Under the pieces are notes generated by a model. That model had not been told where the DNA came from and searched no databases. It saw nothing but the letters and a program-made list of their open reading frames with translations. From positions 57,459-121,458 of the forward strand of contig CAUWKC010000001.1 in NCBI GenBank assembly GCA_963559365.1: a DNA stretch of 64,000 bases, read 5' to 3'. The stretch's first letter is position 1. Every line of letters starts with the position of its first letter. This document shows positions 4,609-53,166 of the stretch, one piece after another. The position numbers and the translations under genes were made by a program. This stretch comes from an uncultured Clostridia bacterium. GTDB taxonomy: Bacteria > Bacillota > Clostridia > TANB77 > CAG-508.

Positions 4609-4636
4609 TTTTTGGGACGGAGAAAAAAAGTGTCTT
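4609..4636 (+). repeat. family 2 element fragment (TTTTTGGGACGGAGAAAAAAAGTGTC) between trpS and obg
   Basis: Sequence. Confidence 0.5.
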
Positions 4637-4651
4637 CAAAAGGAGGAAAAA

Positions 4652-5929
4652 ATGTTTACAGATTATACAAAAATTATCATCAAAGCTGGAGATGGAGGAA
4701 ATGGAGCGGCAACATTTAGAAGAGAAAAATATGTAGCAGCAGGAGGTCCAGATGGTGGAGATGGTGGAAATGGTGGAAATATCTATTTTCAAGTTGATAA
4801 AGATAAAAATACTTTAATTGATTTCCGTTATAATAGAAAATTCAAGGCTAAAAATGGAGAAAACGGAAGTGGAAACCATTGTAATGGAAAATATGGAGAA
4901 GATTTAATAATAAAAGTACCAATAGGAACTGTTGTTAAAGATGCACAAACAGGTAAAATAGTAGCAGATTTATCTGAACCAAATCAAAAAGAATTAATCT
5001 TAAAAGGAGGAAGAGGAGGAAGAGGAAATTCTCACTTTGCTACAGCAACAAGACAGGCTCCAAGATTTTCTGAAGATGGAGAAAAGGGAGACGAAAAAGA
5101 AATTATTTTGGAACTGAAATTATTAGCAGATGTAGGATTATTAGGATTTCCAAATGTAGGAAAATCTACTTTTTTAGCAACTGTAACAGATGCTAAACCA
5201 AAAATTGCAAATTATCATTTTACAACACTTGTGCCAAACTTAGGCGTAGTTAAGACTAAAAATGGGGATGGATTTGTTATTGCAGATATACCAGGTATTA
5301 TAGAAGGTGCTAGTGAAGGAGTAGGATTAGGAATTCAATTTTTACGTCATGTAGAAAGAAGTAGATTATTATTACATTTTTTAGATGTTTCTGGGCAAGA
5401 AGGAAGAAATCCAGTAGAAGATTTTTATACTATAAATAAAGAACTAAAAGGATATAGTGAAAAATTGGCAAGTAGAAAACAAATTATTGTAGCAACTAAA
5501 GTTGATGTTATGCAAGAAGAAACTTTATTAAAACAAGTAGAAGAATTAGCTAAAAAAGAAAATTTACCAATTTTTAAAATATCATCAGTAACAAGACAAG
5601 GATTAGAAGAATTAATTAATTATGTTAGTGAAGAATTAAAAAATCTACCAAAAGAAGAATTAATTGAAATAGAAGATAAAGTAGTATACACTTTAGAAGA
5701 AAAAGAAAATCAATGGGAAGTTCAAGAAAAAGAAGAAGGAATCTTTATTGTTACAGGAAAAGCTGTGGAAAGATTAATGGGTAGAATCAATATTGAAGAT
5801 AATGAATCTATGTATTATTTACAAAAATGTTTGAAAAATATGGGAATTGAAGCAAAATTGAAAGAACTAGGAGTATGTGAAGGAGATACTGTTATATTAG
5901 CTGATTGGGAATTAGAATGGTATGAATAA
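4652..5929 (+). CDS. obg: GTPase Obg/CgtA
   Basis: AAGGAGG RBS then ATG 4652; Gly-rich Obg fold [20 protein letters not shown]; G-domain [13 protein letters not shown]; C-terminal OCT domain. Confidence 0.9.
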
Positions 5930-5953
5930 ACCTTCATGTAAGGGGGAAATATT

Positions 5954-6454
5954 ATGAACGGCGAAAAAAGAAAAGATTATTTATCATGGGATGAATATTT
6001 CATGGCAATTGCAAAATTATCAGCACAAAGAAGTAAAGATCCATCTACACAAGTAGGAGCTTGTATCGTAAGTGAAGACAATCGAATATTATCTATTGGA
6101 TATAATGGAGCACCAAATGGATTTGATGATAACAAATTTCCTTGGGGAAGAAGCGGAGAAAATTTAAAAACAAAATATCCATATGTTTGTCATGCAGAAA
6201 TGAATGCCGTTTTAAACTTTAGAGGAAGTAAAAAAGATTTGGAAAATGCTAAAATATATGTTGATCTATTTCCCTGCAACGAATGTGCAAAAATTATTAT
6301 CCAATCAGGAATAAAAGAAGTAATTTATTTATCAGATAAATATGCAGAATCTGATAATAACATAGCATCAAGAACATTATTAGACGAATGTGGAGTAACT
6401 TATACTAAATTACAATTAAATAAAGAAAAAGAAATAAAAATTGACTTGAAATAA
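5954..6454 (+). CDS. comEB: dCMP deaminase (ComEB-like)
   Basis: CHAEMNA...PCNECAK zinc-deaminase motifs; 166 aa. Confidence 0.75.
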
Positions 6455-6460
6455 ATCAAG

Positions 6461-6895
6461 TCAAATTTTTTTTTGCATAAATATACCATTTTTGTTTTTA
6501 TAATAATTTTTTCGTAATCCTATTTTTTTAAAACCTAATTTTTCGTAAATGTGAATAGCAGAAATATTTTCTTCCATTACTTCCAAATTAATAAATTTTA
6601 AATTTAAGGTTTTAGTAAAAGTAATTAAATTTTGTAATAAACAAGATGCAATTCCTTGATTACGATAATTCTTTTTTGTTACCAAATTCATAATATCAGC
6701 TTCATCTACCATAATTTTAATACCACCAAATCCCACAATTTCGTTTTCTAAATAAGCAACAAAATAATAAGAAGTAGGAGAAGTTAATTCTTTCTTTAAA
6801 ATATTATAACTCCAAAAATCATCAAAATCTGTTAATAAAATATTTTGTATTTTCTCTAAATCTGTTAAAGTCATTTGTTTAATTTCTATACTCAT
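6461..6895 (-). CDS. rimI: ribosomal-protein-alanine N-acetyltransferase (GNAT)
   Basis: GNAT motifs RNQGIASCLL, YEKLGF; sits beside tsaB/tsaE. Confidence 0.75.
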   Translation of the reverse strand: MSIEIKQMTLTDLEKIQNILLTDFDDFWSYNILKKELTSPTSYYFVAYLENEIVGFGGIKIMVDEADIMNLVTKKNYRNQGIASCLLQNLITFTKTLNLKFINLEVMEENISAIHIYEKLGFKKIGLRKNYYKNKNGIFMQKKI

Positions 6896-6906
6896 AATTA
6901 TAATTC

Positions 6907-7590
6907 CTATCTCTGCGCTTGAGGCTTTTTTAAATATAATGGCAAAATATCGTCAAATTGATTTTCTTTAAATTTTTTAATTCCTGCTAAAGCAAGGGAA
7001 TAAGAGTTTAATACATTCTCGTTATGAGAAGCTAATTCTGATTCTGGAAAAAATTCTTTGATTTTGGTAACATGAATTTCAGAAGCATCTCCTATAAATG
7101 TAATAACAGGATTGCTTTCTAAAGAATCTTCACAATAACTTTTTAAAATAGATAAAGCACCTTCTAAACTTTCTGCTTGTGGTTCTATTAAAGATTCTAT
7201 ACCTACAGAATTTTTTTCATAAAGTGCAAAATAACAATTATCATTTTTACAATCTATTAAACTACATATATAATTACTTTGTGTATTATAGGCAAGAGCC
7301 TCTAAAGAACTAATACCAATACATGGTATATTTAAGCTATCGCGAAAAGCCATAACAGTAGAAATACCAATTCGTATACCAGTAAAAGAACCAGGACCTT
7401 TATCAACCACAATTAAATCAATATCAGATAAAGTTATATTTAATTCCTGTAAAGCTTGTTTTATCATAGGCATTAGCCTTTCAGAATGAGTCCTGCCTGT
7501 ATTAGTATCCCATTGACCTAGTAAAGTTTCATTTTCTAATATAGAAACTCCACAAATAGAACTAGAAGTATCAATACTTAAAATTTTCAA
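6907..7590 (-). CDS. tsaB: tRNA threonylcarbamoyladenosine biosynthesis protein TsaB
   Basis: MKILSIDTSS..GPGSFTGIRIG; likely TTG start at 7590 preceded by GGGAGG (the ORF track extends to 7623). Confidence 0.8.
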   Translation of the reverse strand: MKILSIDTSSSICGVSILENETLLGQWDTNTGRTHSERLMPMIKQALQELNITLSDIDLIVVDKGPGSFTGIRIGISTVMAFRDSLNIPCIGISSLEALAYNTQSNYICSLIDCKNDNCYFALYEKNSVGIESLIEPQAESLEGALSILKSYCEDSLESNPVITFIGDASEIHVTKIKEFFPESELASHNENVLNSYSLALAGIKKFKENQFDDILPLYLKKPQAQR

Positions 7591-8038
7591 AATAATCCTC
7601 CCATTTTTTGATTGTTGTATCAATAGTTAAAATTCTTATATCTTCATTGTTTTTGTCCTTAGAAAAGGTAATATGTACATATTCTTTTGGTAAAGCCTCT
7701 TTAATTAATTCGCCCCATTCTATTAAACAAATTCCATTCTCAAAATATTCTTCTCCACCAATTTCATAAAATTCAGAAACATCAGTTAATCTATAAACAT
7801 CAAAATGATAAATAGCAATTTTATCTTTGTGATATTCATTTACAATTGTAAATGTAGGACTTGAAATTTCATCAGCTAAATCAAAATAAGTTAAAACACC
7901 TTCTGTAAATTTAGTTTTACCAGAACCCAAATCTCCAGTAAGAACAAAAATATCTTTATTTTCCAAAAAAGGAGCTAAAGATTTAGCAAAAAATTTAGTA
8001 TCATTTTCACTTCGAGAAATGAACGTAAAACGGCTCAT
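7571..8038 (-). CDS. tsaE: tRNA threonylcarbamoyladenosine biosynthesis ATPase TsaE
   Basis: Walker A GDLGSGKT; YjeE family; overlaps the tsaB start. Confidence 0.8.
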   Translation of the reverse strand: MSRFTFISRSENDTKFFAKSLAPFLENKDIFVLTGDLGSGKTKFTEGVLTYFDLADEISSPTFTIVNEYHKDKIAIYHFDVYRLTDVSEFYEIGGEEYFENGICLIEWGELIKEALPKEYVHITFSKDKNNEDIRILTIDTTIKKWEDYFENFKY

Positions 8039-8102
8039 ATTAACCTCCTCTATAAACTGTATTTATTATAATATAAAAAATAGAAAATTTCAAGAAAAAC
8101 CC

Positions 8103-8131
8103 TTGATAAATAGAAAAGTTTGTAATATAAT
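8103..8131 (+). promoter_or_regulatory. sigma-A type promoter upstream of mreB (-35 TTGATA, 17 nt spacer, -10 TATAAT)
   Basis: Hexamers read directly from sequence at 8103-8108 and 8126-8131. Confidence 0.5.
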
Positions 8132-52533: not shown

Positions 52534-52557
52534 AAAAGAAAAGAAAAAGAAGATAAA

Positions 52558-52574
52558 GGTCAAAGAAAGTCAAA
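52558..52574 (+). promoter_or_regulatory. CtsR operator 1 (GGTCAAAGAAAGTCAAA)
   Basis: Matches the CtsR heptad direct repeat A/GGTCAAAnAnA/GGTCAAA. Confidence 0.7.
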
Positions 52575-52582
52575 AAACAAAT

Positions 52583-52610
52583 TTGAAAAAAGAAAAAAAA
52601 CAAGTATAAT
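52583..52610 (+). promoter_or_regulatory. ctsR operon promoter (TTGAAA-16-TATAAT)
   Basis: Sequence. Confidence 0.55.
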
Positions 52611-52619
52611 AATATTGTA

Positions 52620-52641
52620 AGTCAAAGAAAGTCAAAGTCAA
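52620..52641 (+). promoter_or_regulatory. CtsR operator 2 (AGTCAAAGAAAGTCAAAGTCAA) just downstream of the -10
   Basis: CtsR consensus. Confidence 0.7.
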
Positions 52642-52674
52642 CAATAGGGATTAAAAAGACTGTCCCTACTGTAT
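52639..52674 (+). repeat. partial family 1 element (ACAATAGGGA..GACTGTCCCTACTGT) in the ctsR leader
   Basis: Sequence. Confidence 0.45.
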
Positions 52675-52690
52675 CAAAGGAGTGAAAGTT

Positions 52691-53134
52691 ATGAGGATGT
52701 CAGATGTTATAGAAGAATTTATTAAAGAATTGTTTGATGAAAATGATGCGATTGAAATACAGAGAAATGAATTGGCAGAGCAATTTAATTGTGTTCCTTC
52801 ACAGATTAATTATGTTATTGCTACTAGATTTAAACCATCACAAGGTTATTATGTGGAAAGTAGAAGAGGCGGTGGTGGTCATATTACTATTAAAAAAGTG
52901 AATAATACAAAATCTGATTATATTATGCATATTATAAATAATATAGGAGGTGAAATAACATCTAATGAGGTTGATATTTTATTAAGTGATTTTTTGACTT
53001 ATGATATTTTACAGCCTAAAGAGGCAAAATTGTTAAAGGTAGCAACAAGTGATAATGTTTTACAATTGGATAAAGATATAAAGGACAGTGTTAGAGCAAG
53101 AATTTTTAAAAATATGTTGCTTAATTTAGAGTAA
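52691..53134 (+). CDS. ctsR: class III stress gene repressor CtsR
   Basis: HTH plus glycine-rich loop RRGGGGHI. Confidence 0.9.
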   Translation: MRMSDVIEEFIKELFDENDAIEIQRNELAEQFNCVPSQINYVIATRFKPSQGYYVESRRGGGGHITIKKVNNTKSDYIMHIINNIGGEITSNEVDILLSDFLTYDILQPKEAKLLKVATSDNVLQLDKDIKDSVRARIFKNMLLNLE

Positions 53135-53137
53135 AAA

Positions 53138-53166
53138 GGGATTTTAAGGAACGTCCCTAAAATCCC
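53138..53166 (+). repeat. hairpin GGGATTTTA..TAAAATCCC with GGAACGTCCC loop (family 2 core, reverse orientation) between ctsR and mcsA
   Basis: Sequence. Confidence 0.5.

Follow-up and report, generated by a model that had tools for sequence, protein, structure and literature searches.

To our knowledge, 'domesticated' transposases of the REP-associated tyrosine transposase (RAYT) type, and the populations of repetitive extragenic palindromes (REPs) and of REP doublets folding into hairpins (REPINs), have been studied almost only in Proteobacteria. Here, a family of short hairpins with a GGGAC core, termed family 2, is described from a 64,000-nucleotide stretch of DNA of an uncultured Clostridia bacterium (contig CAUWKC010000001.1, positions 57,459 to 121,458), the whole of which is hereafter called the window, and from related genomes. 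These hairpins are quite probably REP/REPIN-like DNA elements, forming a lineage-wide population of short palindromes that has a TIRYT-class HUH/Y1 transposase as its partner.

The closest systems have been described in three surveys. TIRYTs were defined by Di Nocera, De Gregorio and Rocco (2013, PMC3733652) as RAYT-like genes with flanking inverted repeats, many of which share the sequence GGGGWSAS; the terminal inverted repeat (TIR) families include some that are scattered as dimers or clusters and some that are self-complementary. According to Quentin et al. (2018, PMC6006769), TIRYTs are subclass 2.1, with a Y1 domain and a C-terminal helix-turn-helix (HTH), and no REP-like sequences were found beside subclass 2.1 genes; the REP search model of the same study has a GT[AG]G 5' foot, a GC-rich stem and a loop of 2-5 nt. 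For the Group 1 RAYTs of Clostridia, flanking 16-mers were found to be only moderately abundant (Bertels et al. 2017, PMC5581495). TIRtrons and TIRYTs probably correspond to TnpA-Y1 subclass 2.1, and perhaps also to the Group 1 RAYTs of Bertels et al. (PMC5581495). Rickettsia palindromic elements (RPEs), which are CGTC-tagged, are without a known dedicated transposase (PMC3733652). The system described here is one already known in kind; its loop-tagged AT-rich architecture is unusual, and the lineage is one not previously described for it. Full-text literature searches found no description of this clostridial hairpin family.

Family-2 hairpins in the window

The window is 28% G+C, carries nearly all of its genes on the plus strand, and includes the gap-pgk-tpi-gpmI and ctsR-mcsA-mcsB-clpC gene sets. 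A family-2 unit is a hairpin of roughly 30 nt with the invariant loop GGGGAC(GGAG) and is written (stem)TTTT-GGGACGGAGA-AAAA(stem'), the hairpin type of the window being GGTCNTTTT-GGGACGGAGA; the type of the second set, family 1, is TGAGACAAT-AGGGACAG. The family-2 copies named in a preliminary description of the window were all found on re-reading the coordinates in the sequence (Table 1), its position 52215 being the start of an extended palindrome, with the hairpin proper beginning at 52219. A search of the window with the 13-mer TTTGGGACGGAGA, allowing up to 2 mismatches, gives 6 matches where 0.59 would be expected, a number attained in 0/100 shuffles, and GGGACRG is present 14 times (1.9 expected). 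There are 6 family-2 copies and approximately 7 other GGGAC hairpins in the 64 kb.

Folding energies in the window were computed for single-stranded DNA. Single units have a 13-nt loop and energies of -6.7 to -11.5 kcal/mol (z -3.8 to -7.0), and each of the doublets forms one long hairpin, that of 46368/46424 at -40.6 kcal/mol with 34-nt arms that are 97% complementary, and that of 52153/52219 at -41.7 kcal/mol with 41-nt arms that are 95% complementary (z -12 and -14). At z -1.4, the degenerate copy at 4609 has no significant fold. Among the copies, covariation is seen at the variable stem position, which is G/C at 46368, A/T at 50543 and T/A at 52153.

Two open reading frames (ORFs), 52052-52315 and 52108-52365, had been dismissed as artefacts of the paired copies, and this can be upheld: they have no Pfam hit, they are uncalled in the public assembly, and the repeat pair that they cross is missing from the orthologous region of the related locus L075.

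Distribution and structure of the family

Comparison loci and contigs are labelled L001-L117, and approximately 631 kb of related loci were used for the hairpin survey. Proteins identical to those of the window are present on gut-type metagenome contigs in ENA. The contigs of the same species, L001-L006, are 99.7-99.99% identical to the window, and no insertion or repeat polymorphism was seen between these contigs and the window.

The copies are related and widespread, extending well beyond the window. In GTDB species genomes, scanned with TTTTKGGGACGGAGAMRAAAA, at least 91 stretches have the core, mostly in low-GC Clostridia metagenome-assembled genomes (MAGs), of which dozens carry it. Approximately 80 of these stretches are from low-GC gut MAGs designated 'uncultured Clostridia' or 'Clostridium sp.' (for example Clostridium sp. 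CAG:245), the hosts being rabbit, chicken, goat, mouse and human. Among the matches listed, several to many contigs per MAG carry the core, and in the few high-GC or Bacteroides matches the core is embedded in conserved sequence and forms no hairpin.

Copies in the Clostridia MAGs hardly vary in the loop GGGGACGGAGA and the inner TTTT/AAAA pairs, while each genome has its own outer stem, fully compensated, as GATGA/TCATC, GATGC/GCATC, CTGTT/AACAG, GTACA/TGTAC, CTTGT/ACAAG or GGTGT/ACACC, that of the window being GGTCN/NGACC. A conserved secondary structure, which the preliminary description had left to be checked, is supported by these compensatory changes: pairing extends to 83% of cells over 63 distinct copies, compared with 69% in shuffles, both sides have changed in 89 cells (39 in shuffles), and covariation scores 0.345, compared with 0.124 (0/500 shuffles), with slid registers pairing at 50-62%. 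Across the 631 kb, 175/265 GGGACR sites fall within a hairpin of at least 6 bp, on the 5' side of its loop, giving a background of approximately 1 hairpin per 3.6 kb. Stems are AT-rich (e.g. GATGATTTT) and the conserved loop is 11-14 nt. The wider superfamily has further sub-families, among them TGAGACAAT-AGGGACAG (family 1, also in L025 and L086), TGTCCAA-TTGGGGACGTTTC, and TCGCCCAA-TAGGGACGCCCC.

Doublets are a regular feature of the surveyed loci, in which there are 21 convergent pairs, a plus copy followed by a minus copy with the 5' ends outward, and no divergent pairs closer than 269 nt. The doublets are approximately 90-140 bp, with an AT-rich, non-conserved spacer of 16-75 nt.

Tandem duplicates of the 5' arm, some of them including the first bases of the loop, are common beside full units. 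Such duplicates are present in the window at 52250-52259, where the 5' arm of the 52219 copy is partially repeated (minus strand GGTCTTTTGG), and in L070 (~5575-5600), L046 (~7790-7812), L043 (~1060-1093 and 4365-4388), L036 (655-697) and L112 (3292-3308). Examples include GGTCTTTTGG followed directly by GGTCTTTTTTGGGAC, and GGTCAATTCC four times over. The junction varies, falling after TTTT, TTTTGG, GGGGA, GGGGACG or GGGGACAC; slippage or aberrant strand transfer are possible sources of these duplications.

A Y1 transposase gene bracketed by the hairpins

An initial screen of the loci with RAYT and IS200 sequences served as a lead only. The sole locus matched was L055, which carries two convergent Y1 genes and was then checked with Pfam, NCBIfam, PDB and published sequences. 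In its 249-aa ORF, PF01797 scores 44.8 bits, and the highest score among NCBIfam models, 67.4 bits, is that of NF047646 (REP-associated tyrosine transposase), while the NCBIfam IS200 model scores only 17-18 bits for the Y1 proteins. The gene is flanked by family-2 copies at 6649-6675 (+) and 7495-7525 (-). There are 1166 homologues of the 249-aa protein, of approximately 245-260 aa and all with PF01797, and many of their genes are on contigs of approximately 1 kb, as would be expected if the flanking repeats break assemblies.

Ten distinct Y1 loci were examined (L055, L098, L100, L102 and L112-L117). A sense hairpin is present upstream of the Y1 gene in 10/10 and an antisense hairpin downstream in 9/10, the latter being just past the stop codon in 8/9 of the loci beyond L055. 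Given the background density of hairpins, this bracketing is far from chance. The flanking stems agree with those of the other copies of the same locus, and the flanking loops are GGGGACGGAG in L098, L100 and L102, GGGGACACC in L112, L113, L114, L115 and L117, and AGGGACG(T/C)G (AGGGACGYG) in L116, the last resembling the window hairpin at 53137. The preliminary description had suggested a common origin or a common binding factor behind the GGGAC core shared by the hairpin families, and the presence of GGGAC-core hairpins on the flanks of a TIRYT-type gene in 10/10 related loci makes the common factor probable, with the TIRYT as its candidate.

The Y1 proteins retain the HUH motif (NNHxH) and the Tyr motif KYIHNNPVKA, and have a conserved C-terminal block of approximately 100 aa ending in ...RGTMxxLK, for which Pfam gives sub-threshold matches to HTH_11 and HTH_24 only, and none to Bac_DnaA_C. 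By sequence, the closest solved structure is E. coli TnpA-REP (4ER8). With blastp against the published alignment, the TIRYTs tkm_1558, gbm_2474 and dau_2153 are matched at 30-35% identity (E 1e-25 to 1e-32), while the E. coli RAYT is matched only at E 1e-4 to 1e-7. The Y1 gene follows an ABC-F gene in L100-L103 and L117, and tex is next in L100-L103.

The second Y1 gene of L055 (6176-6691, 171 aa) is closer to the canonical RAYTs (E. coli b228, E 4e-10), and its HUH motif is altered to NHIY. Just upstream of it, at 6143-6170, is a GTAG-footed palindrome, GTAGGGGCACCGTTTGCGGGAATGCCC, and L081 has a similar one, GGGCTG..CAGCCCCTAC; the two palindromes may belong to a classical REP type that exists separately in these genomes. 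A short run of G is present approximately 40-70 nt upstream of the TIRYT start, in an AT-rich leader, in L098, L100, L102, L112, L113, L115 and L116 (AATGGGGGC, AAAGGGGTAAA, GAGGGGGTTTTGTAAAATTATATTACAAAACTCCC and AGTGGGGGAATTAC..GTAATTCCTC are examples), sometimes within a small hairpin; a conserved element of the leader is one possibility.

The form of the doublets could also suggest ordinary miniature inverted-repeat transposable elements (MITEs), derived by deletion from a DDE-type insertion sequence whose terminal inverted repeats would be the two hairpins, and the inverted ends, the overall length of ~90-140 bp and the non-conserved AT-rich spacer are as such elements would have them. 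Single units are, however, equal to doublets in frequency and each unit is itself a hairpin, inspection (rather than a systematic test) of the doublet flanks reveals no evident target-site duplications or direct repeats, and the repeats consistently bracket just one kind of transposase gene, Y1/HUH, no DDE gene having been found between them. An origin as MITEs is therefore exceedingly unlikely.

Comparison with described systems

TIRYTs and their TIRtrons offer the nearest likeness to the clostridial system. The Y1/HUH protein is most similar to published TIRYTs, its gene is bracketed by inverted repeats with a GGGGWSAS-like motif, and the repeats are also scattered through the genome as single copies, dimers and clusters, as in the published account. 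Against the consensus motif alone, GGGGACAC of L112-L115 and L117 is an exact fit, the family-2 GGGGACGG (L055, L098, L100, L102) and the AGGGACGY of L116 are one position off, and the family-1 GGGACAG fits positions 2-8. The differences are that the hosts are uncultured low-GC gut Clostridia, while the main text of the survey mentions no Firmicutes or Clostridia (PMC3733652), that a short AT-rich hairpin with a compensated, genome-specific stem carries the motif in its loop, and that the GGGGACGG of family 2 is that one position away from the consensus. With regard to subclass 2.1, the difference lies in the presence of REP-like partner repeats, none having been found beside those genes by Quentin et al. 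(PMC6006769).

The REP/REPIN-RAYT systems, such as E. coli TnpA-REP and the Pseudomonas REPINs, share with the clostridial elements the short extragenic palindromes and inverted doublets that form long hairpins, a Y1 gene with its own repeats on both flanks and in conserved synteny in some genomes, a population of sequences particular to each genome, a bias to the 3' side of genes, and occasional in-frame intragenic copies. They differ in that the conserved loop of the clostridial hairpin is 13 nt and its stem AT-rich, and in that its protein is distantly related to canonical RAYTs (E 1e-4 to 1e-7) and under the NCBIfam cutoff. The IS200/IS605 elements likewise have a HUH/Y1 enzyme recognising subterminal DNA hairpins on single strands, but their end hairpins share one strand and their transposase is multicopy, while the flanking copies of the clostridial gene are inverted, the gene is in conserved host synteny in some genomes, and the IS200 model reaches just 17-18 bits. 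RPEs resemble the family in having in-frame copies that spare the protein, as in the S66 peptidase linker of L095 and the C-terminus of TpiA, and differ in that the clostridial copies are mostly intergenic.

Gene context and a possible role as RNA elements

Sixty-four single copies could be placed relative to genes. Of these, 45 have the 5' end towards a stop codon and 19 towards a start codon, and 23 start within -7 to +8 nt of the stop codon; the same preference for the 3' side of genes has been published for REPs (PMC3733652). Such a bias would also be expected of host cis-acting RNA elements (terminators, attenuators, processing sites or mRNA-end stabilisers), to which the transposase link would be incidental. 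A T-run on some family-1 copies, the filling of the ctsR-mcsA and tpi-gpmI sites in several species, and a loop GGAG that, as read from the sequence, appears to act as the ribosome-binding site of the next gene in L050 and L011 are in keeping with this explanation. So is the conservation of the L050 and L051 hairpins beyond their spacer: between L050 3040-3300 and L051 3455-3700, both hairpins are nearly identical, with one point change (GCGTCCCC to GCATCCCC), unlike the intergenic spacer, which has approximately 15-20% divergence and a 15-nt indel.

There is, however, no terminator polarity in family 2, since T-rich 3' tails are present in 20/94 hairpins and A-rich 5' flanks in 26/94. The 50543 copy has a separate canonical terminator-like hairpin after it, and the reading of family 2 as terminators was rejected on these two observations. 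Relative to the flanking gene, about one in three single copies and one member of each doublet have the antisense orientation, the 52153/52219 doublet is between divergent genes, termination does not need an invariant 10-nt loop on a free stem, and no Rfam family is matched. This explanation also leaves the Y1 bracketing and the uniform, genome-specific stems unaccounted for, and we regard it as unlikely.

The terminator-like hairpin that follows the 50543 copy, AAAAATTAGGAGA-taaata-TCTCCTAATTTTT with a T-run at 50606-50638, is canonical and bidirectional, and sits between convergent genes ending at 50529 and 50648. The terminator scan of the window picks out two sites alone, 53167-53137 (antisense strand) and an inner portion of 57245. 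Rfam 15 at gathering score finds two tRNAs only in the window, and permissive thresholds around the doublets give only sub-threshold generic long-hairpin miRNA models.

Several other identities were considered and set aside. A selenocysteine insertion sequence (SECIS)-like element, suggested by UGA at the hairpin foot, was set aside as no open frame continues. A CsrA site or ribosome-binding-site mimic (loop GGA/GGAG) was dropped, since use as a ribosome-binding site is only occasional, as were a DNA uptake sequence, Chi or the FtsK-orienting polar sequence (KOPS), there being no strand skew and the motif being located in the loop.

Some copies are within coding sequence. In L095 (887-1978), two tandem in-frame family-2 copies (~1423-1494) are inserted in an S66 LD-carboxypeptidase, in the linker of its N- and C-terminal domains, each encoding VFGDG(A/D)KKH. 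The tails of the window TpiA and of the L055 171-aa ORF use the same reading frame (FGDG) as L095.

Orthologous sites and mobility

The window and related loci differ in the occupation of orthologous sites (Table 1). As is typical of REPs, several species have copies at the same tpi-gpmI and ctsR-mcsA sites, and the stems differ between these species. That sites persist across species with stems that are nonetheless genome-specific points to ongoing copying or conversion, not to independent drift. The 46368 copy encodes the tail of TpiA, ...FGRFGDGDKNDHPIK; the protein ends in ...IVNFGRFGDGDKNDHPIK in the window and in ...IVNYDK* in the L049 orthologue, which would mean that the first unit of the doublet replaced the TpiA C-terminus.

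Table 1. Hairpins of the window and the state of the orthologous sites in related loci
Position	Strand	Feature	Context	Orthologous site
4609-4631	+	Degenerate family-2 copy TTTTTGGGACGGAGAAAAAAA, retaining only the inner T5/A5 stem and loop	Immediately 3' of TAG stop of upstream gene; obg downstream	Full convergent doublet upstream of obg in L022/L062
46368-46398	+	Family-2 hairpin GGTCGTTTTGGGGACGGAGACAAAAACGACC, left half of doublet	Overlaps 3' end of tpiA	tpi-gpmI: doublet with GGTCG stems in window; one sense copy, CCTGT stem, in L049; one sense copy, GATGA stem, in L025
46424-46454	-	Family-2 hairpin, reverse complement of GGTCGTTTTGGGGACGGAGACAAAAACGACC, right half of doublet	Upstream of gpmI ribosome-binding site	
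50543-50573	+	Single family-2 hairpin GGTCATTTTTGGGACGGAGAAGAAAATGACC; palindrome reaches 50538-50578	13 nt past stop of GGGtGRT-family gene	Absent in L049
52153-52183	+	Family-2 hairpin GGTCTTTTTTGGGACGGAGAAGAAAAAGACC, left half of doublet	Divergent nfeD / small-ORF intergenic region	Doublet absent in L075
52219-52249	-	Family-2 hairpin, reverse complement of GGTCTTTTTTGGGACGGAGAAGAAAAAGACC, right half of doublet		
53137-53167	- (GGGAC strand)	Diverged member GGGATTTTAGGGACGTTCCTTAAAATCCC	ctsR stop codon to mcsA ribosome-binding site	Typical family-2 copy AGGTGTTTTTTGTCTCCGTCCCCAAAAACACCT in L075, position and orientation identical
34377-34408	+	Family-1 hairpin TGAGACAG-TAGGGACAG...-TTGTCTCA	TGA is stop codon of upstream gene (550-aa ORF)	
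38215-38246	+	Family-1 hairpin of convergent doublet (span 38215-38353)	Downstream of gap	
38322-38353	-	Family-1 hairpin of the same doublet	Downstream of gap	
42883-42919	+	Variant, family-1 5' module TGAGACAATAGGGACGG differently paired	TGA is carB stop codon	
44308-44338	-	Family-1 hairpin	Upstream of pgk	Absent in L049 region
52641-52672	-	Family-1-like variant ACAGTAGGGACAG...TCCCTATTGT	CtsR boxes to ctsR ribosome-binding site	Absent in L075
57235-57266	+	Family-1 hairpin	TGA is clpC stop; followed by T-run and GTCGAATTTTG	

Persistence of sites between species would also suit immobile binding sites for a domesticated, non-mobilising protein, be it the TIRYT Y1 domain, its HTH-like tail or another factor, whose binding to GGGGAC hairpins or cruciforms would serve regulation or the organisation of the chromosome. 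The synteny ABC-F, TIRYT, Tex is conserved in several genomes, like that of a vertically inherited housekeeping gene, and the conserved C-terminal block with its sub-threshold HTH matches would fit such a protein. Uniform genome-specific stems at orthologous sites require, however, ongoing copying or conversion, copies are present or absent among close relatives, the HUH and Tyr catalytic motifs are intact, and the in-frame intragenic copies resemble insertions. This makes immobile sites very unlikely.

A number of points weigh against family 2 being a mobile, REP/REPIN-like population. No clean filled-versus-empty site with a defined footprint was found among the same-species, L050/L051 and L075 comparisons, so that mobility is inferred only; around 52153-52249, the alignment of the window and L075 is too AT-rich and diverged to define insertion boundaries. 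The occupation of sites across species could reflect long-term retention for a host function. There is no Y1 gene in the 64-kb window or in the 9 kb upstream and, because the rest of the genome of the window species was not reached, the partner gene is documented only in relatives. A metagenome scan for the GGTC-stem variant returned 8 chance matches, all to unrelated high-GC contigs, and tblastn of the TIRYT-neighbour genes (ABC-F, Tex, NrdD, UvrD and others) against the window gave no matches. The NF047646 scores of the Y1 proteins, 62.5 and 67.4 bits, are under the curated cutoff of 80, and the canonical REP features, the GT[AG]G foot, GC-rich stem and 2-5 nt loop, are absent. The link from family 1 to the Y1 gene would follow from the shared core alone. 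Lastly, the TIRYT/RAYT surveys consulted (PMC3733652, PMC6006769, PMC5581495) report no tested biochemical activity of a TIRYT.

Other GGGAC hairpins of the window

Family 1, the ctsR-mcsA copy and the other GGGAC-loop hairpins of the window are probably REP/REPIN-like too. The preliminary description had assigned the copy at 53138 to family 2. Its place inside the ctsR-mcsA junction, in reverse orientation, is as described, but it is a different hairpin, with only TTTTAGGGACG and the overall architecture in common with family 2 and with GGGA located within a 14-bp stem. On the mRNA strand, this hairpin is followed by A7-GGAGG with no U-tract, and it is terminator-like on the antisense strand only. 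The role as a processing or attenuation site that the preliminary description proposed for this copy finds no support in the analysis. The TIRYT gene of L116 is flanked by hairpins of a similar TTTTAGGGACG(T/C)G type.

The family-1 unit is longer than its hairpin, which is followed by a T-run and then GTCGAATT(T/A)TG, seen in the window at 57267-57284, 38247-38270 and 38298-38321. This extension is conserved among the window copies (50 nt, 90%) and in another species (L086 ~5975-6012). The TGTCGAA within it may resemble a Spo0A box. The first three bases of the family-1 5' arm (TGA) are the upstream stop codon at 34377, 42883 and 57235, and many family-2 copies of other genomes also start with a TGA or TAG stop (TGATGATTTT...). 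These starts may reflect a target preference, or a filter tolerating 3'-terminal insertions that supply a stop.

Upstream of ctsR there are two copies of RGTCAAAGAAAGTCAAA, at 52558-52574 and 52620-52636. Conserved in L075 as well, they have the look of tandem CtsR heptad operators and bear no relation to the hairpin families; CtsR operators were dropped as an identity for the hairpins, the real CtsR boxes being these separate sequences.

Proposed mechanism and implications

By analogy with E. coli TnpA-REP and the IS200/IS605 TnpA, the hairpin would extrude on single-stranded DNA, where the Y1 enzyme would recognise it together with the loop motif, then cut and rejoin, and in so doing copy, replace or homogenise units. 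Such activity would account for the uniform stem particular to each genome, which is seen even at orthologous sites. Remnants or half-products of the process would be left as single copies. Effects on neighbouring genes, such as the extra C-terminal residues of TpiA, hairpins in 3' or 5' untranslated regions, and a loop GGAG donated as a ribosome-binding site, may be side effects or later co-option.

For annotation, these repeats are a warning, in that they create false ORFs (52052-52365) and add residues to TpiA and the S66 peptidase; they probably also break metagenome assemblies. While surveys of TIRYTs and subclass 2.1 list a few flanking inverted repeats or no REP-like partner, this large group of uncultured gut Clostridia shows an abundant and clear one, with a predicted recognition motif that is simple to state, a GGGGAC loop on a free stem. 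The orthologous sites with their genome-specific stems are a natural experiment in concerted evolution.

It is possible, although we put it forward tentatively and consider it doubtful, that in these small-genome gut Clostridia the TIRYT and its hairpins are a vertically inherited, co-evolving system in which sites are kept across species while the stems are continually overwritten to the genome-specific sequence. The hairpins would then be held at stop codons, at ribosome-binding sites, and even within operons and protein linkers. If this is so, it would mean templated replacement or conversion by a loop-reading Y1 enzyme, rather than classical cut-and-paste, and the lineage would provide the first workable model for the function of the subclass 2.1/TIRYT enzymes.

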